DNA from: an uncultured cyanobacterium
GTDB taxonomy: Bacteria > Cyanobacteriota > Cyanobacteriia > CAKZMO01
Assembly: GCA_963719515.1 (NCBI GenBank)
Contig: CAVRCJ010000010.1
Coordinates: forward strand, 416,001-480,000
Direction: 5' to 3'
DNA: 64,000 nucleotides
The notes below the pieces were generated by a model. It ran no database searches. It had not been told where the DNA came from and was given only the letters and a program-made list of their open reading frames with translations. Both the position numbers and the translations under genes were made by a program. Shown here in pieces: positions 13,795 through 44,053 of the stretch; within the stretch, counting starts at the first letter, position 1, and each line of letters opens with the position of its first letter.

Positions 13795-13950
13795 AAAAGC
13801 GGGGGTAAAGAGCGTAATCTTTCTTAACCTTTCGGGGAGGCTGCTGCGATCGCATTCCTGAGGCGGCGTTGAGGGGCGATGGGGGCGATCGCACCGGGCT
13901 GCGGAGCATGAATCTAGCCCTTGGCCTTGCCCAGACTCGAAAGATGGAGA

Positions 13951-13967
13951 TATAGTACTTGTGTACT
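13951..13967 (+). promoter_or_regulatory. Putative LexA box overlapping the -10 element of the parM-like operon
   Basis: AGTAC-TTGT-GTACT (13954-13967) fits the cyanobacterial consensus RGTACNNNDGTWCB. TATAGT lies at 13951-13956. Confidence 0.65.
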
Positions 13968-14004
13968 GCTCGGGGACAAACAAGCCCAGTTGGAGTAACC
14001 ACCT

Positions 14005-15048
14005 ATGACTACAGCTACCAGACAAAAGCGTTCTAGTAAAGTGCAGGGGAGTCCTTCCTCCCCTACAGCGCCGTCCACCGCGACGCGAATTGTTGCCCTC
14101 GACGCCGGCAACTACGACCTCAAGTTTTTCGACGGGGTGAATCACCCCAAGGCGATACGCTCGGTGCGCTATCAGCTTCCCCAGGGCCGCGACCCCGTCA
14201 GTACCTCAGACGCCTCGCCCCTAGTCGAGCTTTCCGACGGCACCCGCTACCACTTCGGGGCCCAGGCCTATAAATATCGCCGTCAGCAGCAAACGGTCAT
14301 CGAAAATAAGATAGAGCTGGCGCGTTTGCATCTCTACGCCTGTTTAGAGCCGCTCAACGGCATGTCTAGCGAATTTTCTCTACAACTGCATCTGTCGACC
14401 CCTGAGCCCGGTAAGCACGGTGAGGCTCTGAAAAAAGAGCTGCGAGGGCTGCACGAGTTTACCCGCAACGGCATCGAGTTCCGCGTCAACGTCGAGAACG
14501 TCACCGTAGAGCGCGAGGGCATGGGAGCCTACTGGTACGCCAAGAACCAGGGCTTTATTCCCAACCAGGGCTACACCATCGTCGTTGATATCGGCGGCGG
14601 CACCTGGCTCACCCGGCTAGTCGATGGGGAAGGCGAGGTAATAGACGAGAACGTGATGAATCGAGGGGGCTCCTACGAGCTAGCGGTCTCTATCAGCTTC
14701 GATCGCCGCCTTACCGACGCCCTGGGCACCACGGCAGACCCCAGCCTTGTGATGGATGGATTCCGCAGCGGTCACGGCTACGCCGACACAGGGCTCTCTT
14801 GGAGCCCCTGGCTCGACGAGCACCTTGACCCCTGGTTCAAAGGCATTTTCCAAACCGTCAAGGCTCAATACACCCCCTATATGGCCCGCGTCACCAAGTT
14901 CCTCGTGACGGGCGGCGGCTCCCACCTCATTTCCGAGCGACTTGCCGGACGTAAACTGTTTACCGTGATGGGCGACCCTCAGTTCGCCAACGTTCGCGGT
15001 CTGTACCTTCTTACCCAAGACAGCCAGCTATGCATGACAACAAAGTAA
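14005..15048 (+). CDS. ParM/StbA-family actin-like ATPase
   Basis: Phosphate-1 motif ALDAGNYDLK, REGMGA, phosphate-2 motif VDIGGGT, adenosine motif VTGGG, C-terminal PQFANVRG. Confidence 0.9.
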   Translation: MTTATRQKRSSKVQGSPSSPTAPSTATRIVALDAGNYDLKFFDGVNHPKAIRSVRYQLPQGRDPVSTSDASPLVELSDGTRYHFGAQAYKYRRQQQTVIENKIELARLHLYACLEPLNGMSSEFSLQLHLSTPEPGKHGEALKKELRGLHEFTRNGIEFRVNVENVTVEREGMGAYWYAKNQGFIPNQGYTIVVDIGGGTWLTRLVDGEGEVIDENVMNRGGSYELAVSISFDRRLTDALGTTADPSLVMDGFRSGHGYADTGLSWSPWLDEHLDPWFKGIFQTVKAQYTPYMARVTKFLVTGGGSHLISERLAGRKLFTVMGDPQFANVRGLYLLTQDSQLCMTTK

Positions 15049-15320
15049 GACTTAGCCAAGATGTGATCGACAAAGCGCAGGTGATCGCCACCGAATGGGG
15101 TCTGAAAAACGCCCGCGCCGCCGTTGAGGCCGTGTTTCGCCGCTATTCAGACGAGTACCTATACGGGCGACAATCCTCAGGGCCAATAGGTCAGCCAGTG
15201 GGTCAGCCAGTGGGTCAGCCAGTAGATTTACCAGTGGGCCTGCCGCTGCGGGCCGTTCCTGCGAGCGCCGCCGCGAGCTGCGAGGCGCTAGAGGAGCTAG
15301 ACGATCTGCTGGCGATGTGA
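15030..15320 (+). CDS. Small partner protein of the ParM-like ATPase (ParR-like adaptor candidate)
   Basis: Overlaps the parM stop. Predicted beta-helix-helix N-terminus, PVGQ-repeat linker and acidic C-terminal helix EALEELDDLL. Confidence 0.65.
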   Translation: MHDNKVRLSQDVIDKAQVIATEWGLKNARAAVEAVFRRYSDEYLYGRQSSGPIGQPVGQPVGQPVDLPVGLPLRAVPASAAASCEALEELDDLLAM

Positions 15321-15333
15321 GGCGGCATAGGGG

Positions 15334-16482
15334 CTAATGTCTTAGGGCGTTATCTACGGCCTGCTGCTGATCGCGGCGAGTAATCCAGCGGTGGTAGGTC
15401 TGGGTGTGGAGACTCACGGAATGCCCCATCATCTGGGCCGCGACGGTGTCCGGTAGGCCGACGTGAATGGTGCGTACGGCCCAAGCGTGACGGAGGTCGT
15501 AGGGCTTAAAGGGGAGGCGGTAGCGGCGCAGCTGGGTCGTCACTTTTTGCCCAATGCGCTGCAGGGTAGTTTGACTCAGATCGGTGGTTAGCTTTGGCAA
15601 AACTACAGTCTGCAGCTCAAACTGCTCTACCCATTCTGGGTGGAACGGCCATACCTCGCGCTGTCCGGTCTTGGTGGTTTCCAGCACCTCTACGGAAGCG
15701 CGAGAAGGGTCTGACGCCTGCAGTAGGCGATCGCAGTTGCAAAAAAACACCTCGTGGTTACGCAACCCATAGGCCGCCATCATGCCGTAAACGAAGCGCC
15801 ACCCTGGATTAGGAATTTGGCGGTAGGTCTCAACAATCGCCTCATCCGTAGGCAGCTGCCGCAGCTTCGCGTGGGTGCGGCTGTAGCTGCCCCAGCGCTG
15901 ATCTAGGTCAGGGAGCTCTAAATCGAGAAACTGAGCGAAGGCGCTGAGGGCGGTGTAGGCCACTTGGCGGCTGCGGGAGCGCGGCGGAATAGCGTCGAGG
16001 GTGGTGTAGATGGTCTCAGCTAAAGTGAGCCGAGAGGAGGATTGGGCCGCTGCCTCCAATTTGCGCAGGTAGGGAGCGTAGGCCGTCCGCCAGGTGGTTT
16101 TGGCGGCGGCCTGGGCCATGACGGTTTGGCGCTGCTGAAAGAAGCTCGCCTGAAACGCCTCAATCTGCTCTGAAAGGCACAGCTGGTGCAGCCGCTTCCC
16201 CCCAGGCTGATAGTTTCGCCAGTCGAAGGTGCGCTCTATCAGCTTGGCGGCGATAATCTTCGCCTCTTGTTCCGCCTGCTTCAGCCCGGGCTTTGTGGCC
16301 GGAAGCCCTAGACTGAGGCGCTGCTGGCAGGGGCGGAGCCGGGCGCTCTCGGGGCGGGGCGGAAAGGTGCCCCGCAAACTCAGCTTTTGCCCCCGGCGCT
16401 CGAGATGTACGCCGAGCTGGGCGGCTTTTAGCCGTTGATTGATCTGTTGGAGGCGGAGATCGATGTCAGCTGAGGGGACCAT
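15334..16482 (-). CDS. Tyrosine recombinase (XisA/XisC-like site-specific integrase)
   Basis: YGLRNHE, TKTG, YDLRHAW, MGHS and HTQTY catalytic motifs. Confidence 0.9.
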   Translation of the reverse strand: MVPSADIDLRLQQINQRLKAAQLGVHLERRGQKLSLRGTFPPRPESARLRPCQQRLSLGLPATKPGLKQAEQEAKIIAAKLIERTFDWRNYQPGGKRLHQLCLSEQIEAFQASFFQQRQTVMAQAAAKTTWRTAYAPYLRKLEAAAQSSSRLTLAETIYTTLDAIPPRSRSRQVAYTALSAFAQFLDLELPDLDQRWGSYSRTHAKLRQLPTDEAIVETYRQIPNPGWRFVYGMMAAYGLRNHEVFFCNCDRLLQASDPSRASVEVLETTKTGQREVWPFHPEWVEQFELQTVVLPKLTTDLSQTTLQRIGQKVTTQLRRYRLPFKPYDLRHAWAVRTIHVGLPDTVAAQMMGHSVSLHTQTYHRWITRRDQQQAVDNALRH

Positions 16483-16729
16483 TGTCAAACAGTCGCAAGT
16501 ATTGTGACAGAGGAGAGCTTAAGACGGGCTTAAGGTTTAAACTAACGGTTAGCTTGTTCCACTGATAGCTTATAGAAAGCGAATTTATAGAAATAAATCG
16601 TTCGCTGGATTCTGACATCTACACCGATCGATGCCAGTTTCAGCGCTAAGATTAAGAAATATTATCTTTACTATAGAAGATACTGAGTCGTCTACAGTTG
16701 GTTCGCTTAAGTTTGTTATCTCATAGACA

Positions 16730-18343: not shown

Positions 18344-21300
18344 ATGATGCAGATTAGACGCGCAACGCGCGATGACGTCCGTGTGGATATGGAGCAGCGC
18401 CTAAGCGCTGCAAGCGCAGGCGACACAGAAGCGATCGCCGCCCTAATTGAGCGATCGCTAATTCTATCGCGGGTCGCCGTGCGGGCGCGAATCGAGGGGC
18501 GCTGTCTCTACATCATTCTCTATGGGCAAACGGGGCAGCAGGATAGTCTGGTGCGCTTCATTAAGTCGGGCCTGCAGCAGATTCGCATTGAGGGCGTCAG
18601 CGAGATAGATATTGCGCTGCACGAGGACGAATCGGAGCGCAGCCCCATCTGGAGCTATCGCGGTCAGCTGCGGCCGTCCCAGCCCGTGGCGGTATTGGCG
18701 ACGCCCAAAGCTATTCCGCCATCCACCTCCCCCCGCCGGGTAATCACCGGAAACTACAGCACCCAGTGGACTTCCAGCGGCATTCGCGTTGACGCCACTT
18801 CCTCTAGCCCCCAGCGGTGGGTGCCCCAGTCGGCAACTCCCCCCGCCGCGCAGGATCTGTTTGACCGGCAGTCGGCCATCTACAAAGCCACCCAGGCCAT
18901 CAAGTCGGGCGCTCCCCTCCAGGTTCACGGTCCTTCTGGGGCTGGAAAGACCACATTCTTGCGCCACCTGATTCACCAGCAGGAGGTGCAGCAGTTTGGC
19001 GACGGCATTGTCTACATAGAGGCCTACAAATCTCTCAGTATTGACCTGCTCCAGCAGCTATTCGAGGCCCTTTACCACAGCAACAACGCGGTCCCCACCA
19101 AACCGACTCTCCCGGAGCTTTACCACGCCCTCCGCAGCCGCAATAGCCTAGCCGTTATTGACCAAACTGCAGCGGTGGACAGCCTCGATCCTCTCATTGG
19201 CACCGTACCGCTGCTGCTGGCCGCGCAGACCTGCTACCTCTGGGAGCGGGGAGAGGTGGTTCCCCTAGAGGCTTTTTCAGACCACGAAGCCCTCACCTTT
19301 GTTGAGCTGAAGCTGGGCCGTGCCCTATCCGTAGACGAGCAGCGCTCTGCAATGGATCTTTGCCGTCACCTCAAGGGCAACCCGGCCCTGCTGATTCAGC
19401 ATGTGGGGATAGTGCGGCGGGGACAGTCCTCCTTTGCAGAACTCGCACAGCAGATAGACGCTGGGTTTTCCCCAGACGCGCTGGTCATGCGGGCCGCTAG
19501 CGATCTCTCAGACGAAGAGCGGCGACTGCTGGCTACCCTAGCCGTTTTTGGCCCCGTTCCCATTCGGGCCCATCACCTGCAGGCGATCGCTGGCGTGGAC
19601 AGCATTTCCCTGACGGAGCTACAGGCTCGGGGACTGGTGTGGGGCGACGACGCCTACCGGCTGGCTAACAATCTGCTAGCTCCGCTGCAGCAGGTGTGGG
19701 ATCTCACCCCCTGGTATGAGCGAGCGGTGCATTATTTCAGCAGCTGGGCCACCTCCCAGCACGAGCGCATCCCGGCTTCTGGGGAGGCGGCTTCGCCAGA
19801 GACCCTGGCCATGCTCGACCTCCTGTGGCGATTGCTGGAGCGCTCGGTGGAGCTGCATCAGTGGTCCGACAGCCTGTCCCTATGCCGCGCCTTGGATCCA
19901 CTGCTCTACCAGTACTGCCGCTGGGGACGGTGGCAGCAGATCTGGGAATTGGGCCGACAGGCGGCGCGGGAGCTAGAAGACAGCGCGACTGAGGCCTGGG
20001 CCTTGCACCAGATGGGCAGCGCTGCCCTTTGCCTTGACGACAGCTTTGCGGCCCAGGCCCACCTCGCAGAAGCTCAGCAGCTGCGGCTGCAGGCGGGCGA
20101 TATGGTTGGGGCGGCGCTGTCTCAGCACAACCTGAGCGTTGTCACCCAAACCCTGGGCAAAGACGTCACCCGTAAGGAGGCTGCTCGGCCAGCCTCCAGT
20201 GCCCCAGCCGCTGCCTTCGTGTCTATGCCTCAGCAGCTGCCGCTCAAGTGGCTCCTGTTGGGCGGCGCGGCGCTCCTGGCCGGAGTTGGAGCGATGTTTA
20301 GTTTGCAGTCGTCGTCGTCGGAGGTCTCAGTGCGTCCGGGTCTGATTACCTTTCCGCCCCAGCTGCGCTCTACCCCCAGCGAAACGCGCGAGATTGTGGT
20401 TTACAACAACAGCTCCGAAGCGCTGTCTATTGACGAAATTGTTCTGGGCGATCGCGAGGGAAACGTAGACACCAGTCAAGACGCTGGCGACGACCCTGCG
20501 CTTTCCGGCAGCAATTTTCAGATTGAAGAAAACTGCACCGATAGCGTTCTTCTCCCCGAGGCCTCCTGCACAATTGAGGCGCAGTTCACGCCACAATCCG
20601 TGGGAGCCCACGCCGCGACGGTGACCATTGTTGACGACAGACAGCCCCTGAAAACGGTGACTCTCCGCGGTGTGGGTGCGGTTGCAGAAGCTGAATTTGA
20701 GCCCAAGTCTTTGACGTTTGAGCCGCAGCAGCCCGACGCTGAGCCCACGACCCAAATCGTCACCGTCCGCAATAAAGGGGCCGTGGCTTTTGCTGTGGCA
20801 ACGGTGGCCCTAGAAGACACAACGGCCTTCTCTATTAAGGCTGATGAATGCGCTGGGCTGACCCTAGACACGCGGGACACCTGCCGCCTTGTGGTCCAGT
20901 TTGACCCGCCCGAAGCCGGCGAATTTGCGGCGACGCTGACCGTCACCCCCGAAACCCGCTCGACAATTTGGACGCTGCCTCTAGAAGCCGCCGTCTCTAC
21001 GACACCCTCGTCAGGGACTACCCCGTCTACCCCCTCAAGCCCTTCAGCGCCCCCTGCGCCACCGAGCCCCTCGCAAGCGCCTCGCCTAAGCTTCCCGCCC
21101 CTGCGTCTGCCGCCCATCTTTACCCCGTCCCCTAGCCCCGCACCGCGCCCGCGCCCGCGCCCGCGTCTCAAGGCCGAGCTTGCCGCCAACGTAGAGTCAG
21201 TCGCCTTTGACGACCAGCGCGCAGGCAGTACGGGAACCGAGCGCATCACGCTGACCAACAGAGGAAACGGAGACCTATACTTCGACTCGATCACCCTCGA

Positions 21301-22159
21301 CGAGACGGACCACTTTGAGATTGCTGGTACAGACTGCGGCCTACTTAAGCCGGGCGGTGACTGCGTTGTGGCTGTAGAGTTTGTTCCCCAAAGCGCGGGA
21401 GAACATGTCACTCAGCTGCAAGTTAGCAGCAACATCGAGACGTCTCCCATTCCCATCAGCGGAACCGCAACGGCAGGGGAGCGATCGCCCCAATCCCGTC
21501 CGCCCCAAACCCAGCCGCCCGGAGCCCAGCCGCCTCAGACGCAACCTCCCCAAGCTCGCCCTCCCCAAGCCCAAGCGCCCAAAATTCAGGCCCTCAGCCT
21601 ATCGAGCCGCACCGTCGGCCCTGGGGAAGCGGTAGACCTGTGCTACGACGTCACTGGGGCCGATACAATCTCCCTTAGCGACGGCCAGACGACCCGGCCA
21701 TTGAATAATCTAGCGGAATGCCTACCGCTCTCCCCCCAGGCCACCACCACCTACACCCTGATTGCCCAGTCCGGCGAAGAGCAAGTTGAGCAGTCTGTCA
21801 CCATCACGGTAGAAGATGTCGCCGTTGATATCCCGGTGAGAGCCCCCTTAACGCCTCCCCTTCCCTTGTCTCCGGGAAGCGCCGGCAGCGCCCCCCCGGT
21901 CTCCTGCATCGCCAACTCAGTGATCCTGCAGTGGGAGGGATCTGCAGAGTCCTACGAGGTGACCCTAGAGCGCGAAGAGACCGCAGACGATGCTCCGGTC
22001 TGGGTACCGGTGTTCACCCAAACGGTTGACCAGTCCCAGCTCGACGTCTCGGCCTCTGTGGGCAACTTCGGCCTCCACCGTTGGCGGGTGCGATCGCTAG
22101 GCGCATCTGGAAGCAGCAGCGCCTCCGCCTGGCAAACTTTCCTGTGTGTGGTGGAGTAG
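18344..22159 (+). CDS. Large membrane protein: STAND-like P-loop NTPase, TPR-like helices, TM helix and Ig-like (ASH/choice-of-anchor D-like) repeats
   Basis: GPSGAGKTT, LAVID, GNPALL, EAWALHQMG, hydrophobic WLLLGGAALLAGVGAMF, three beta-rich repeats of the type C..L.....C...V.F.P...G...A.L, Pro-rich linkers. Confidence 0.8.
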   Translation: MMQIRRATRDDVRVDMEQRLSAASAGDTEAIAALIERSLILSRVAVRARIEGRCLYIILYGQTGQQDSLVRFIKSGLQQIRIEGVSEIDIALHEDESERSPIWSYRGQLRPSQPVAVLATPKAIPPSTSPRRVITGNYSTQWTSSGIRVDATSSSPQRWVPQSATPPAAQDLFDRQSAIYKATQAIKSGAPLQVHGPSGAGKTTFLRHLIHQQEVQQFGDGIVYIEAYKSLSIDLLQQLFEALYHSNNAVPTKPTLPELYHALRSRNSLAVIDQTAAVDSLDPLIGTVPLLLAAQTCYLWERGEVVPLEAFSDHEALTFVELKLGRALSVDEQRSAMDLCRHLKGNPALLIQHVGIVRRGQSSFAELAQQIDAGFSPDALVMRAASDLSDEERRLLATLAVFGPVPIRAHHLQAIAGVDSISLTELQARGLVWGDDAYRLANNLLAPLQQVWDLTPWYERAVHYFSSWATSQHERIPASGEAASPETLAMLDLLWRLLERSVELHQWSDSLSLCRALDPLLYQYCRWGRWQQIWELGRQAARELEDSATEAWALHQMGSAALCLDDSFAAQAHLAEAQQLRLQAGDMVGAALSQHNLSVVTQTLGKDVTRKEAARPASSAPAAAFVSMPQQLPLKWLLLGGAALLAGVGAMFSLQSSSSEVSVRPGLITFPPQLRSTPSETREIVVYNNSSEALSIDEIVLGDREGNVDTSQDAGDDPALSGSNFQIEENCTDSVLLPEASCTIEAQFTPQSVGAHAATVTIVDDRQPLKTVTLRGVGAVAEAEFEPKSLTFEPQQPDAEPTTQIVTVRNKGAVAFAVATVALEDTTAFSIKADECAGLTLDTRDTCRLVVQFDPPEAGEFAATLTVTPETRSTIWTLPLEAAVSTTPSSGTTPSTPSSPSAPPAPPSPSQAPRLSFPPLRLPPIFTPSPSPAPRPRPRPRLKAELAANVESVAFDDQRAGSTGTERITLTNRGNGDLYFDSITLDETDHFEIAGTDCGLLKPGGDCVVAVEFVPQSAGEHVTQLQVSSNIETSPIPISGTATAGERSPQSRPPQTQPPGAQPPQTQPPQARPPQAQAPKIQALSLSSRTVGPGEAVDLCYDVTGADTISLSDGQTTRPLNNLAECLPLSPQATTTYTLIAQSGEEQVEQSVTITVEDVAVDIPVRAPLTPPLPLSPGSAGSAPPVSCIANSVILQWEGSAESYEVTLEREETADDAPVWVPVFTQTVDQSQLDVSASVGNFGLHRWRVRSLGASGSSSASAWQTFLCVVE

Positions 22160-23959: not shown

Positions 23960-24060
23960 GGGGAAATCTTGCCCCGCTGGTGCGGGGTTTGAGAGATGGC
24001 AACTGCCCGAAACTTGCCGGTGGGAGGCAGTTGCCTTTGCGTGTCAATAAAAATAGTAAA

Positions 24061-24076
24061 CGATAAGTACTTATCG
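24061..24076. promoter_or_regulatory. Perfect 16-bp palindrome, candidate XRE operator
   Basis: CGATAAGTACTTATCG between the divergent genes. Confidence 0.6.
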
Positions 24077-24089
24077 CTTGTCAAGTACG

Positions 24090-24299
24090 ATGGGACTGGT
24101 CCGATTGCGAATTCGTGAGATGGCCGATGAGCGCGGCTGGACATTGAAGGATGTTGCCGATCGCTCTGGGGTGCCGTATAGTACGGTGCGCCACTATGCG
24201 CGATCGGAGCTGGCTACGGTTGACTTGTCGTCTGTACAGAAGATTGCTCGCACATTTGAGGCTTTGATTGAGGATTTGCTCGAAGTAGTAAAGGAGTAG
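24090..24299 (+). CDS. XRE-family HTH transcriptional regulator
   Basis: MGLVRLRIREMADERGWTLKDVADRSGVPYSTV. Confidence 0.9.
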   Translation: MGLVRLRIREMADERGWTLKDVADRSGVPYSTVRHYARSELATVDLSSVQKIARTFEALIEDLLEVVKE

Positions 24300-24587
24300 T
24301 GACCAGCAAGGGCCAGGCACCTTTATTCCCCATTGAAATAGATGCAGTAAGCTCTATACAGCTCGACACGATAAAAAATCATCTGAGACTGTTGCGACCG
24401 CCACAACATACAATTTAAAAGCATTCAGAGATATATTGCTTCAGTGAACTCTAGTTTCTAAATTCGTGTTTTTTTAGCAGAATATCTCTGAATTCGTTAT
24501 TTTACTATGCCTGAGGGTACTATTAATACAGGTAGAGTTCGCTCTGGCTGTACAGTTCTTTACATACTCAAGAGCTGAAAGAATACT

Positions 24588-25136
24588 ATGGCTAAACAAG
24601 CAACTAAGCGAAAGACGCGTCCAAATATCAACAAAGTTAGAGCAGAAATTCGTGACCTCGTTGTGCAGCATGGTTATGACGATCAAATCTTGCTGGACTT
24701 TGCAGAATTCGTTAACGGCGGAGCTTTCAAGCCTGTAGAGCTGCGTATGCAAGACCTTAAGGAAGCTGTTATAGCTGAATTTAATTGTGCATCGTACAAG
24801 GATTTAAAGAAAGACAGCAGCTTTCAAATGTTTGTTCGAGAGCACAGTCTCAAAATGAATTCTAAAGCTTCCTGGCTAAAGGTTTACCGAAAGTTTGTGG
24901 GGCTGCCTCAAAGCGAGAAAAATTCTATCAGCGACACATCTATTAATGGTATTGATGTATTGCGAAACTTTTTGCCTTGGAAAGTTTTTGCCTTAGATCC
25001 GAAAACAGCCACCGCTGACCAAATCAAAACTGAGTTCAATAAGCTTGCTAAGAAGCATCATCCTGACCACGGGGGTAATGCAAACGTATTTAAGCAGCTC
25101 AAGGTAATGCGAGATAGCCTGTTAGCCGCATATTAA
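24588..25136 (+). CDS. Protein with C-terminal J-domain
   Basis: PWKVFALD...DQIKTEFNKLAKKHHPDHGG; AT-richer than the flanks. Confidence 0.85.
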   Translation: MAKQATKRKTRPNINKVRAEIRDLVVQHGYDDQILLDFAEFVNGGAFKPVELRMQDLKEAVIAEFNCASYKDLKKDSSFQMFVREHSLKMNSKASWLKVYRKFVGLPQSEKNSISDTSINGIDVLRNFLPWKVFALDPKTATADQIKTEFNKLAKKHHPDHGGNANVFKQLKVMRDSLLAAY

Positions 25137-25161
25137 AAATTTAAAGATAGCTTCAGAATCA

Positions 25162-26172
25162 ATGGGAAAGTGCAATATTACGGGTAAAGAACTAGCCAGC
25201 GCCCTGGATATTAAGGAAGAGCGTCTGCTTGAAATTTGTGAGTTTTTCGATCTTGATCCAGATGACGATTGGGAGCTAATAAAAGATACCCACTTCAAGT
25301 GGGGACCTTACGGCGCAAGAATATTCAGCCCAGAGGGAGCAGTTGAAATCTGTCACTATCTGGAAAAAAATAAACAGGAACGTCCTCGTCTGAAGCGCTG
25401 GGAGCGATGGCTATTTCAACGCGATCGCCGCTTAAAGGGCCTGATGGTTGCAAAGCGCGTTCAAGAAATCAGCCAGCTTGAAGGGCAGATTGTTTTCAAT
25501 AGCGGCAGAGCGTTTCTGGAACCAAGAGCTTGCCGCGAAGTACTTGGACTTGGAACACGCCAAGATATATTGAATAGAACTTTTCAGGAGATCCAGCGAT
25601 CTGACAACGTGGAGCTTGAACCGCTGAAAATTGACGTTGACTTTTTCATTCATGAGAGAAGTGCTCGCTGCTTTAGCCGTTCTGGCCTCGCCTCAGTAAG
25701 TAAGCAGTTAGGAGTTCGGCTTTCTCAGAAGCACCGCCAGGAGTGGATGAAGGCTGTTGCCGATTATGCGCCTTCGGCCCTAGAAACGATTGAGAATCAC
25801 GAAGCAGATCGAGCAAAGCGTATCACGCGAGCAATGAACAAAATTCGCAAACAAGCGAAAGGTAGATGTCAACTAACCAACCGCCCTAAAGCAATATATA
25901 AGTTTAATCTAGAGGTTCATCACCTTTTTGATAAAAATGCTTATCCACAGCTTGCTGATATGGAGACCAATCTCATTGCTGTTGCATCTGATATTCATGC
26001 CCACTTTCATCAGTGGATGGGTGGTACACATATTACCTGTACTGTAGAAGATATGGAACGCTATATTGACGAATTTGGAAACTCCCTTTTTGATGATGAT
26101 CGTGCAGAACAGGCGACAAAAGTAGCTATTGCTCTATCTATAGCAAAGAAAACACTAAGACCATTGATTTAA
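25162..26172 (+). CDS. Protein with C-terminal HNH-like nuclease domain
   Basis: GRCQLT...LEVHHLF...NLIAV...IHAHFH. Confidence 0.75.
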   Translation: MGKCNITGKELASALDIKEERLLEICEFFDLDPDDDWELIKDTHFKWGPYGARIFSPEGAVEICHYLEKNKQERPRLKRWERWLFQRDRRLKGLMVAKRVQEISQLEGQIVFNSGRAFLEPRACREVLGLGTRQDILNRTFQEIQRSDNVELEPLKIDVDFFIHERSARCFSRSGLASVSKQLGVRLSQKHRQEWMKAVADYAPSALETIENHEADRAKRITRAMNKIRKQAKGRCQLTNRPKAIYKFNLEVHHLFDKNAYPQLADMETNLIAVASDIHAHFHQWMGGTHITCTVEDMERYIDEFGNSLFDDDRAEQATKVAIALSIAKKTLRPLI

Positions 26173-26212
26173 TTAGCACTTTTGCATATCTACCCATTCT
26201 TAGTTGTTACCG

Positions 26213-26884
26213 TTAAATCAGCTCCGGGTCTTCCCCCAACTCCCGCAACCGAGCCGCCAGCCGCTCCGCTCGCTCCTCCGGCGTCAAAAGCCGCTTCCCA
26301 ACTCCATCAAACCACCCCAACATCTCCAGGGCATCACCGCCCGAAACTCTCTCAAATCGCCCAATCCCCAAACCAATCTACGGCATCCAAAACGGCTCGC
26401 CAAGCTGCAACTGGTACACCCCATCCACCAGCTTGTAAACCTCAAACGGCTGATGCCCGTCCCGTTGCCAAAACTCCGGGTTATAGACAATGTCATACAA
26501 CACGCCCAGCTTGCTGTAAATCTCCAGCTTCTCGCCATACTCCCCACCCGGCGTCCAAGACACCACCTCCAGCGCCAGCGTAGGAACGACCTGCTCCTCC
26601 CAAACCACGTAGCTGCGGCGCAACTTCCCATCCTTCCGCCGCTTCACCCCCAAACTAAGGAACCCATCCGGTACAACCGGCACCCTAGGATGCACACCAG
26701 TCGTGTGGTAGATTCCCATATCCACGCCAAAGAACCAGTCATTGCGATCGGCCCATAGCGCCTTGAGGACAAACAGAAGGATGTTGGGAATTAGGTTCTG
26801 TAGCTGATCATCCACAGGCAAACCGTCTGAGTCGGGCAGCTCAGCGCTAAAGGGTAGACGGCTATCGACATCGGGTTGAACCAT
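26213..26884 (-). pseudogene. Uma2-family endonuclease with an in-frame nonsense codon
   Basis: The Uma2 sequence (VPDGFLSLG, LEVVS, EYGEKLEIY) reads WMP-TAG(26378-26380)-IGLGIGR...TPEERAERLAARLRELGEDPELI in one frame. Confidence 0.85.
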
Positions 26885-26932
26885 AGGACAGAATAGCCTC
26901 AGCCTGATTTCAGGGCAACTACAGTGCAAAGA

Positions 26933-27307
26933 TCAAGACGATAAATAATTCTGAGCTTGCTCAACAAACACCTTTGCCGCTGTAAAAATTGTTGCCGCCT
27001 GCTCCCGCGTTAAAAATACGGTAACCTCGTAGTCACTCAGCCTTCGGAGGTCATAAGCATTGCTCAATGCCCGCGCCAAATCAACCGGCAGTTCTTCGCT
27101 TTTGATGAAATACTGACCAAAGGCTTGAATAGCCCCTTTGTGTGTCTTGTTGCTGATTCCCTTTGAGGACAATAATGCCTGGGTCGCATGGTACATAGCG
27201 TAGTAAGACCGCGAGATGCAAGCCCGATGCCTCTCATTCACTAGAAGTATCTCAGCCGTTTCTAGTTCATCCCGCGCTAGGTTTAGAAATGGGTCAATTT
27301 GACTCAC
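26933..27307 (-). CDS. HEPN-domain toxin
   Basis: ISRSYYAMYHA, KTHKG, LRRLSDY; 4-nt overlap with the MNT gene. Confidence 0.9.
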   Translation of the reverse strand: MSQIDPFLNLARDELETAEILLVNERHRACISRSYYAMYHATQALLSSKGISNKTHKGAIQAFGQYFIKSEELPVDLARALSNAYDLRRLSDYEVTVFLTREQAATIFTAAKVFVEQAQNYLSS

Positions 27308-27690
27308 ACAGCAAGTCCTTCCTGCCGAATGACTTCCAGCAAAGGCGACTCCCGATGCTGATAGTCATCAGCTGAAACTGGCACTACCGAAATCAGCTCA
27401 TCGTACTTAAGATTTAGCGTCGTCTTCACGTCACCCATGCGAAAAATCTCATCGCCGGGAGAAATAGGCCCTTGGAGAACCACCATCACATCTACATCAG
27501 ACTCCGCCGTTGCCTCCTGCCTTGCATAGGAGCCATAGAGAATTAAGCCAGCAAGGCGATCGCCGTACAGCTCAATCAACCCTTGGCGAAATTCCTGCAG
27601 CAGGCAGCTTATTTTTTTGCTCGCAACCGCGCTCAAGTCAGATGGCTCCAGGCCAGGGAGTTTGGAGATATCAAGATCAGATTGAACCAT
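27304..27690 (-). CDS. Minimal nucleotidyltransferase (MNT) antitoxin
   Basis: GS-X10-DXD motif (GSYARQEATAESDVD), C-terminal EVIRQEG. The start was taken at the ATG at 27690. Confidence 0.9.
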   Translation of the reverse strand: MVQSDLDISKLPGLEPSDLSAVASKKISCLLQEFRQGLIELYGDRLAGLILYGSYARQEATAESDVDVMVVLQGPISPGDEIFRMGDVKTTLNLKYDELISVVPVSADDYQHRESPLLEVIRQEGLAV

Positions 27691-27750
27691 GCAGCCGTAC
27701 TTATACAAACTCCACAGTGGCTTTGGCGTTCAGCAACGTACATACTCTAT

Positions 27751-28142
27751 GTGACATCCTCCCGACGCTGACAGCAAGCTGTACAGCGCGGGCTTCCTCA
27801 GTGACTCCCAGCTATTGCCGAGACATATCCTGAGATAGGTTTATACTCCGCCTGATGCCCCACGGCAGAGTTTTGAATTTTCATCTCCGCGAGGGAGGAT
27901 ACGCACTATGTGTCGCAGATACATTTGCAAACTGAGGAACGGGTGACTTGCAGCTTTCGCCTACGGGCCCGTCACACTCTTTGCGGGGTGTATCACCTTG
28001 CTATCTCTATCATACCAACTGCTAGCCTCAGCGCTGAGCGCACTATCCGCTGTGCATCATTTTGCGGGCGCACTTCGGCTAGCGCGACTCTCATCCCGAC
28101 GCTCACCCTGACGGGTAGAGCGCGGGGCTTCCTGTCTAGTCG
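27751..28142 (-). mobile_element. 392-bp non-autonomous IS200/IS605 (tnpB-derived) element, copy 1
   Basis: Near-identical (2 differences seen) to 63351-63742. It has related subterminal hairpins at both ends, a right end GATGTCAC, TTAG next to the left end, no TSD, and a decayed tnpB C-terminus (NSAVGH...AIAG). Confidence 0.85.
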
Positions 28143-42496: not shown

Positions 42497-44053
42497 GTAC
42501 GTATTCAGGTCTAGAGGTTGACGGCACAGGGCTGTAGATGCTGGAGAGGGATGAGTGACACCTCCAAGTCGATGGCTCCTGCCGCTTTGGCCAATGCCTG
42601 CCCGACGAAGGCTATGGCAGAGCGTCCCTGAGCCCGACAGGTCTGAATCACCGATAATAGTCGTGCGGTGTGCTCAAAGCCTGACATCGAGCGAGAGCCG
42701 CCTGACACCTTGCGTTTGGTCACTCCGAGCCGCAGCGAGCGCTCAGCACAATTGTTGTCTGGCGGCACCTGAGGGTGGTCTAGGAAGTACCACCACTGGT
42801 GCGCCTTGCTCACCAATGAGGTGAGCAGAAGCCCAGCCGCATGGCCCGCTTTGGGCTTCCACTCGGCTATTGCCTCGGCTAATGTAACTTTGAATTGCTC
42901 AGCCCATAGGTTATAGGATGCCCTGTCGCCTGCGAGGCGGTAGTGGCGATGGCGGTCAAAGGCCTCTTTTATCAAGGCAATGAATGCTTCGGCCAATGCC
43001 TTCTGGTGCGGGGGCTTTAGCTTAGCTACTTGCTTGAAGTGCCGCAATAGGTGCGCTAGGCACTTCTGCTGAGCGGCTACCGGGTAGCCGTTGTATACGC
43101 TGTAGTCATCGGAGATGAGCACCCCTGCAAAGCTCTTTCCCAGCAGCATCTCCAGCTCACTGCGCGAGCGGGTATCCCCGGCATGGAGGAGCGCAAATCC
43201 TTCACCGCTGATGGTCCATAACCACTCTTTGACCCCCTTCACCAGCCAAGCTGTTTCATCCACATGCAGCTGTGGTTGCTGCTTTGCCCAAGCTTGCAAG
43301 TCATCCACCGCTGCCGCTACTGCTTGGCTAGCCCGCCGCGTCGTTGCCACAAGCGTCCCCACACCTACCTCGATATCACCTAGCTCTTTGAGCCATTCCT
43401 GCTGCTTGCCGTAGGATAAGTGGCCATAGTGACTCAGCCACACCAGCATCGCCTGCAAGCTCACGCCCAAATCCTCTCCTGCCACCACATCCTCGGGTAA
43501 GGGCGCAGCGACATGGCTACCACATCCCCCGCAATATCCCCGCCACTGCTGGTATTCCACCACTTCTATCGGCTTGGCCACCAGCTGCGCCACCTGGTAG
43601 CACCGATAGCTTTGTCCCACGCTTTCGATATGTCCACTTCCGCATCTCGGGCAATGCTCTAGATGCACCACCTCGTATCGATCTACTCGTCCAAATCCCT
43701 TGCGTGTTTTCCCCTGGTGCCCTGGCTGTCCCCCTGCTTTCCGCTTGCCGGCTTTGGGCAAATCCTCTTTCCCCTCTTCTGCTGGCTTTGGTTTCTCACT
43801 GCGTCGCACCAAGTCGCTTGACGGCGGTTTCGACGAACTCTGGCTATCGCTATCAATGATTCCTTTGAGCCGCTCTACCTCTCGAGCTAGCTGCTCTATC
43901 AGCTCTTGCTGCCGCACGATAATCCCTACCAGCACAGAGCGCGGTGCTTGCTCTAATTCGCTGAGGTCTGGAATATCCGAGGCAGGTGGTGGGCTCATCA
44001 ACTAACGCTACCGCAACGTCTCCCTTTGTCAATCCCTGCACCTGAATAGGTAC
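42497..44053 (-). mobile_element. IS66-family insertion sequence (single-ORF type)
   Basis: TIRs GTACCTATTCAGG / CCTGAATACGTAC; 8-bp TSD TCCTGTGC at 42489-42496 and 44054-44061. Confidence 0.95.
42511..43998 (-). CDS. IS66 transposase
   Basis: SSKPPSSD, GGQPGH, zinc-finger cysteines, HVDET, SDDYSVY, QKCLAH, DNNCAERSLR. Confidence 0.95.
   Translation of the reverse strand: MSPPPASDIPDLSELEQAPRSVLVGIIVRQQELIEQLAREVERLKGIIDSDSQSSSKPPSSDLVRRSEKPKPAEEGKEDLPKAGKRKAGGQPGHQGKTRKGFGRVDRYEVVHLEHCPRCGSGHIESVGQSYRCYQVAQLVAKPIEVVEYQQWRGYCGGCGSHVAAPLPEDVVAGEDLGVSLQAMLVWLSHYGHLSYGKQQEWLKELGDIEVGVGTLVATTRRASQAVAAAVDDLQAWAKQQPQLHVDETAWLVKGVKEWLWTISGEGFALLHAGDTRSRSELEMLLGKSFAGVLISDDYSVYNGYPVAAQQKCLAHLLRHFKQVAKLKPPHQKALAEAFIALIKEAFDRHRHYRLAGDRASYNLWAEQFKVTLAEAIAEWKPKAGHAAGLLLTSLVSKAHQWWYFLDHPQVPPDNNCAERSLRLGVTKRKVSGGSRSMSGFEHTARLLSVIQTCRAQGRSAIAFVGQALAKAAGAIDLEVSLIPLQHLQPCAVNL

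Follow-up and report, generated by a model that had tools for sequence, protein, structure and literature searches.

We describe a two-gene pair, M and R, in which a ParM/ParR system of cyanobacteria was almost certainly domesticated independently on the chromosome. In our preferred reading, which we hold with a probability of roughly 0.45, the pair is LexA-controlled and probably moves DNA under stress. The features of the locus, numbered within the window (the whole 64,000-nucleotide stretch of DNA that was analysed), are as follows.

13927 to 13956, plus strand: sigma70-like promoter, with the -35 element at 13927, an 18-nt spacer and the -10 element at 13951-13956.
13954 to 13967, no strand assigned: 14-bp palindrome of 12.1 bits over the -10 element, a cyanobacterial LexA-type box.
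13972 to 13987, no strand assigned: a further palindrome, weaker than the first and 18 bp downstream of it, either a tandem LexA site or an operator for R.
14005 to 15048, plus strand: M, ParM-type actin ATPase of 347 aa, identified by ALP_N, fold and motifs.
15030 to 15320, plus strand: R, ParR-like adaptor of 96 aa with a head (1-46), a linker and a C-terminal helix (84-96), delimited by alignment and model.
15182 to 15244, plus strand: 12-nt tandem repeat encoding the adaptor linker, not found in aligned relatives.
15334 to 16488, minus strand: tyrosine recombinase, a neighbour outside the system with orthologues elsewhere on other chromosomes.

The two open reading frames overlap by 19 nt and are single-copy on a contig of 905 kb. 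The first-pass annotation had described a complete actin-fold ATPase overlapping a 96-aa gene, set among core genes of host-like composition with no rep, mob or tra genes and no iteron array nearby, and each of these points was borne out. M matches ALP_N and the actin fold, its neighbours in the window are housekeeping genes, and the locus has a GC content of 0.59, the contigs one of 0.56-0.58. No match to rep, mob or tra families was obtained in 46 further open reading frames of the window or in three flanking ones. The sole tandem repeat between 12700 and 16800 codes for the R linker, so it can be ruled out as a parC and this interval contains no iteron array. The adjacent recombinase, a resident enzyme, has orthologues at 62-66% identity in three of the five other genomes tested, and was dismissed as a mark of recent insertion. 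The succession MBL hydrolase-integrase-hemH, which had been proposed as a synteny marker, turned out to be local to the closest relatives and fails as a family-wide marker: with flanks of 1.5-4 kb, MBL was found in 5, the integrase in 7 and hemH in 2 of 117 loci. R lies directly after M in 116 of these 117 loci and stays there while the neighbours change by lineage. Elsewhere in the window, a region of low GC (24000-27800, 0.43-0.52) encodes a small HTH-like protein, a DnaJ-like one and a HEPN/nucleotidyltransferase pair, together with two further genes that have no Pfam match; a 1271-aa protein (18344-22159) combines an ATPase-like N-terminal part with ASH/HYDIN Ig-like domains, and an IS66 transposase is located at 42514-44001.

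M passes the Pfam ALP_N model (E 3.8e-9); StbA_N gave no match anywhere in 401 genomes, controls included, and thus carries no information. A fold search with the predicted structure of M (pLDDT 81.7) revealed similarity to Ta0583 (E 7e-20, TM 0.73), to plasmid ParMs and, fourth in the list, to CorM (PDB 9RMI; E 6.5e-18, TM 0.68, 18% identity). In an alignment of 49 orthologues the actin motifs, which we take to be phosphate-1, connect-1 (Glu171), phosphate-2, adenosine and connect-2, are invariant or nearly so. The N-terminus of M is basic and disordered over about 29 residues. Across 93 sequences this disordered extension has a median length of 29 aa and a net charge of +4, and it is mostly missing in six plasmid-type sisters of M.

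The model of R (pLDDT 61.6) comprises helices at residues 10-23, 28-46 and 85-95. Among 54 orthologues the head of about 46 residues contains 21 invariant positions and is more conserved than M; the linker varies, and the acidic tail retains Cys84, Ala86 and Leu90. The RHH-like N-terminus previously suggested for R stands as a likeness of fold, through weak matches to CopG, Arc and omega and Atlas leads at 0.82-0.84, but not as a family assignment, as no RHH family matched at E<=0.001; the head likely has the RHH fold. Judged from its sequence, R is without an N-terminal amphipathic helix: its N-terminus has a moment of 0.32, no aromatic residue and a net charge of 0, whereas two helix-bearing CorRs reach moments of 0.50 and 0.65 and contain Trp/Phe; the N-terminal extensions of some R orthologues were assessed by eye only. 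Complex prediction docks R residues 84-96 on a surface of M (275-319) that is rich in invariant residues, with a score of 0.64 against 0.00 for the best control, which may reflect likeness to the solved ParM-ParR and CorM-CorR structures. The score mark is reached by 116 of 157 solved pairs and by 2 of 215 mismatched pairs; across runs, contact agreement was at least 46% and partner pLDDT at least 53. Cys84 (15279-15281), with which the M-binding helix begins, is invariant in 54 of 54 adaptors and is a possible redox switch.

The sigma70-like promoter is weak evidence alone (one found against 0.5 expected in shuffles), and 67 of 90 orthologue promoters have a -10-like hexamer that overlaps their box. 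The box at 13954-13967 ranks in the top 1% of 2718 upstream regions and fits the cyanobacterial LexA consensus published in section 6 of PMC3091678. The left half of the second site follows the first box in 61 of the 90 promoters, paired palindromes 15-24 bp apart are present in 41, and in Nodosilinea-named loci the second site is a full LexA-type box. This conserved two-site motif (13954-13987) had been missed by the first-pass annotation, which reported no visible parC. A genome scan for the same arrangement returned 15 scattered matches and no array. The second site was also considered as an RNA hairpin, which is unlikely by eye, the right arm being poorly conserved.

We scored the promoters with a matrix derived from 30 sites in 31 lexA promoters only. 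At least 10 bits were reached by 73 of 90 M promoters, a set of distinct proteins in which kin are over-represented, as against 1.2% of the 2718 upstream regions of the own genome and 33 of 1800 shuffled controls; 17 promoters fell under 10 bits. Three of 93 promoters with short flanks were left out of the set, and six loci were dropped as no start was found. Identical box variants precede recA in several genomes, and the motif matches the lexA and recA promoter sites in carrier lineages; it also occurs in taxa without the pair, according to PMC3091678. A lexA gene is present in 30 of 30 carriers tested, and the cleavage and catalytic residues (Ala-Gly/Ser/Lys) are intact in 28 of 31 LexA sequences, which by sequence makes the host LexA one of the cleavable type. 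LexA control of the pair is probable, and the motif suggests that it would take the form of repression. Cyanobacterial LexA also controls non-SOS genes (PMC13416735), and no ParM-type member of its regulon is named in the accessible parts of PMC3091678 and PMC13416735. Among the distant ParM loci, 2 of 13 reach at least 10 bits (L204, 11.1; L205, 13.9); both are among the three closest mobile-type sisters of M, so the box may predate domestication or have come with the cassette.

Other sites of this type were noted along the way. Strong LexA-type boxes lie upstream at G000:C3:539331, C3:800366 and C3:756352 (L136-L138), in front of two genes without a Pfam match and one class II ribonucleotide reductase with an intein. 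At seven places in G000, identical gene copies carry a 12-bit LexA-like site 15 bp before the start; judged by its N-terminus, we take the product to be a TnpB-like insertion-sequence protein. Six genomes of family f9 hold at least two full-length recA genes, several with LexA-type boxes (L263, L269, L272, L273, L276, L288, L297-L302).

Orthologues of the pair were found in 15 of 16 genomes of its own family. In a sample of the class, with orthologues defined by at least 64% identity, intact M is present in 87 of 400 genomes at 64-87% identity, all in four families (f1 7/7, f14 50/53, f16 14/34, f9 16/53) and in 0 of 253 genomes of the others. Two non-intact copies, broken in G105 and a relic in G192, would bring f14 to 51/53 and f9 to 17/53. 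Named carriers include Leptolyngbyaceae, Oculatellaceae, Elainellaceae, Nodosilinea, Stenomitos and Halomicronema. Seven one-contig genomes carry the pair on that contig, and in L079 it lies on a named complete chromosome; the pair is stable on the chromosomes of thin filamentous cyanobacteria. A search of 72,556 plasmids gave 72 matches, of which the best has 47% identity and the remainder, among the best 40 of the 72, at most 30%. In four pairwise comparisons M has a dN of 0.009-0.066 at a dS of about 1 or more (dN/dS about 0.01-0.06), as expected of a sequence under purifying selection. Distances between M proteins track those between RpoB proteins (39 genomes; Mantel rho 0.71), and the two trees have most of their small clades in common; RpoB replaced RecA, whose tree was too noisy and contained paralogues, and in the RpoB tree, of 80 author-chosen genomes, deep branches are weak and the protein and nucleotide versions differ. 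Carriers often hold further distant ParMs. In G000, outside the window, a second chromosomal ParM-like gene (C10:73370-74503; L203, L314) encodes 378 aa, is accompanied by an RHH-like partner of 134 aa, and is unrelated to M, distant from CorM and devoid of a strong LexA box. It occurs at 91-94% identity in 4/4 genomes of the genus and at 76% in 3/4 of a second genus, and is patchy beyond.

We then placed M relative to CorM, the actin of the CorMR system of Anabaena PCC 7120 (bioRxiv 10.1101/2025.06.27.661541; PDB 9RMI), which is the FcmBC of Nostoc punctiforme (PMC12645912). In a midpoint-rooted FastTree phylogeny of 142 ParMs over 316 columns, the M clade receives a support of 1.00, and its sister group (0.97) consists of plasmid-type proteins, L132 among them; the CorM clade is on the other side of the tree. 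M matches CorM with an E of only 0.064, and shares 28% over 116 residues with L149, a CorM orthologue (E 1e-194 to 9RMI). The earlier view of M as a ParM of another clade than CorM is therefore sustained. That the pair is a recent plasmid relic or a CorM orthologue has hardly any probability left. The adjacent tyrosine recombinase and the fourth rank of CorM in the fold search speak for it, and against it stand the presence in 15/16 family genomes and 87/400 of the class, the separate clade, the 62-66% recombinase orthologues, the low dN/dS, the tracking of RpoB and the best plasmid match of 47%; the 18% structural identity and the R without an amphipathic helix separate it from CorM/CorR. Together these results support the independent co-option first proposed for this locus.

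The own genome lacks CorM, and its MinC is an open frame of 261 aa against 359 aa, where a long MinC exceeds 300 aa. CorM is found in 97 of the 401 genomes of the class sample; it is absent among the 150 representatives listed and was reached through ALP_N in 10 genomes. Among the 147 genomes of the four carrier families, 4 have both genes, 84 M only (G105 counted), 29 CorM only and 30 neither. In f16 (34 genomes) there are 14 with M, 18 with CorM, none with both and 2 with neither, most of the CorM genomes forming one clade; in f9 (53 genomes) there are 3 with both, 13 with M, 11 with CorM and 26 with neither, which is no depletion (Fisher p 0.51). As kin are not independent, our tally comes to about six separate instances in which CorM is present and M absent, four in which both are kept, and several losses that leave neither; the near exclusion rests on few events. 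In two genomes with acquired CorMR the pair was lost: G192 has a helix-bearing CorMR and fragments of M and R, a deletion relic, beside glgC, and G333 has a helix-bearing CorMR and lacks M-R at the syntenic site where its sister G317 keeps it. Helix-bearing CorMR and intact M-R occur together in G215, G317 and G404, and G105 has a broken M without CorM.

CorM loci, sorted by eye and by the 142-ParM tree, are of two kinds, with a helix-bearing CorR (N-terminal extension of 30-48 aa) or a helix-less one, and helix-bearing CorM nests inside helix-less CorM. A LexA box lies within 300 bp at 14 of 25 helix-less loci, as opposed to 0 of 17 helix-bearing CorM genomes with a box of at least 10 bits. 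Many helix-less corM genes are divergent to ftsH, and 14 of 17 such loci have the box against 0 of 11 ftsH promoters without corM, so the box goes with corM and not with ftsH. Given these box counts and the distribution, there are two unrelated chromosomal ParMR pairs that share a regulatory signal and are seldom together. CorM-clade genes (L146-L153, L406-L422) also extend beyond the two orders that the preprint names, into further families such as f20 (8/8, small genomes) and f28 (7/7); most of these have no CorR helix and are neighbours of ftsH, frequently with a LexA box. The helix-bearing CorMR of f9 and f16 (L208-L212, L217) groups with the f27/f32 type at 75-81% identity, and its varied neighbourhoods make horizontal transfer likely.

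In the preferred reading, a two-gene ParM/ParR cassette passed from a cyanobacterial plasmid to the chromosome of the four families' ancestor, with vertical inheritance ever since, as the genomic data show. The LexA box over the -10 element would repress the pair, to be expressed upon LexA inactivation, most likely by DNA damage. From its intact motifs and what is known of the family, M would polymerise with ATP; R would grip M through its C-terminal helix, as modelled, and DNA through its highly conserved RHH-like head. Since the system has neither a membrane helix nor a parC array, the filaments would most likely serve, in recovery from stress, to push chromosome copies or set them apart, or to hold them away from the septum; the odds that the cargo is DNA rather than membrane are about even. 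Against this reading, no chromosomal parC-like array was found, and CorR, which has an RHH, did not bind the two DNAs tested. The few events behind the exclusion, the missing depletion in f9, the 30 of 147 genomes with neither gene, the non-SOS targets of cyanobacterial LexA, the 17 of 90 promoters under 10 bits and the boxes of L204 and L205 also weigh against it. The pair would fill the slot of the helix-less, LexA-boxed CorMR relatives, and redundancy in this slot may be the reason for the observed tendency of lineages to keep only one of the two.

The main rival is a convergent cell-shape cytoskeleton, in which the pair would do the job of CorMR/FcmBC where that system is absent, attached to the membrane by the basic tail of M or another anchor, and LexA would adjust cell shape during stress. 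It would fit the near exclusion between the pair and CorM and the loss of the pair after CorMR was acquired. It would also fit the gain by M, as by CorM, of a disordered N-terminus (29 aa at the median, net charge +4) and the statement in PMC12645912 that the filamentous strains without FcmBC belong to subsection III. We nevertheless regard it as rather unlikely, because R is without the N-terminal amphipathic helix essential to CorR, MinC is short (261 versus 359 aa), helix-bearing CorMR coexists with M-R in G215, G317 and G404, and helix-bearing CorMR has no LexA box (0/17).

Plasmid ParRs autorepress, and the promoter palindromes might instead be an operator for R or a minimal parC, the pair being a constitutive, LexA-independent segregator or positioner of the chromosome from a single locus. 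The two palindromes 15-24 bp apart in 41/90 promoters and the R head, more conserved than M, would suit such a role; it is improbable given that the motif is found at the lexA and recA promoters of these lineages and also in taxa without the pair, that an unrelated adaptor (helix-less CorR) stands behind the same box, and that the locus moves among many neighbourhoods. A still smaller chance goes to machinery that the host keeps and that acts in trans, under SOS, to stabilise resident plasmids or phages or to interfere with them. Its plasmid ancestry, the LexA-like boxes at two mobile-type sisters and the further distant ParMs of many carriers point that way, but plasmid ParRs and ParMs are highly diverse and R is nearly invariant.

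If the preferred reading of LexA-controlled DNA movement is extended, an SOS-inducible actin system of filamentous cyanobacteria would move chromosomes after DNA damage in two unrelated, interchangeable versions, M-R and the helix-less CorMR relatives, and the cell-shape cytoskeleton CorMR/FcmBC would descend from the second version, to which a membrane helix and a long tail were added and in which LexA control was lost; we offer this tentatively, as a somewhat doubtful scheme. The LexA link would then supply an intermediate step that has been lacking between the segregation of plasmids and the control of cell shape. The pair itself is almost certainly a second, independent and old ParMR incorporation, in filamentous lineages said to lack FcmBC, and it is a candidate for handling multi-copy cyanobacterial chromosomes under stress. 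Cultured carriers exist among Leptolyngbyaceae, Nodosilinea and Halomicronema strains.

Among known systems, CorMR/FcmBC is likewise a parM-parR operon that filamentous cyanobacteria carry on the chromosome and inherit vertically, with no parC array, a disordered actin N-terminus (about 42 aa in CorM and shorter in M, with a median of 29 aa in 93 sequences) and an adaptor that binds through its C-terminal helix, for M-R as modelled. M-R differs by its separate clade (18% structural identity; 28% over 116 aa versus L149), its R of 96 aa without amphipathic helix, the short MinC, the LexA-type box and a nearly complementary distribution. According to the preprint (bioRxiv 10.1101/2025.06.27.661541), the amphipathic helix of CorR is essential and CorR keeps the RHH yet did not bind the two DNAs tested; its authors infer that ParMR entered cyanobacterial chromosomes a single time, with vertical transmission thereafter, and raise the question of repeated repurposing. 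The words LexA and Leptolyngby do not occur in its main text or in the accessible text of PMC12645912. A search of mostly openly available literature gave nothing relevant on the M-R clade or on a LexA-ParM link beyond the papers cited here; the clade is apparently uncharacterised, and may stand unnamed in the tree of the CorMR preprint. Salactin of the archaeon Halobacterium salinarum (PMC10746226) offers a functional precedent, as this actin homologue is encoded on the chromosome and has been proposed to distribute DNA in a stress condition. As in the cyanobacterial LexA regulon (PMC3091678, PMC13416735), the M-R promoter has the 14-bp consensus box. With type II ParMRC (R1, pSK41) the pair shares gene order and overlap, an actin-fold ATPase with intact nucleotide motifs, the adaptor layout and, in the model, a C-terminal helix of R that docks on M. 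The closest plasmid pair, on NC_019741.1 (L132), has a ParM with 47% identity to M and a downstream gene that ends in a similar acidic helix. Unlike these plasmid systems, M-R is chromosomal, lies in a housekeeping context, is strongly conserved and has an N-terminal extension, and in place of the parC iteron array of type II ParMRC it has two palindromes.
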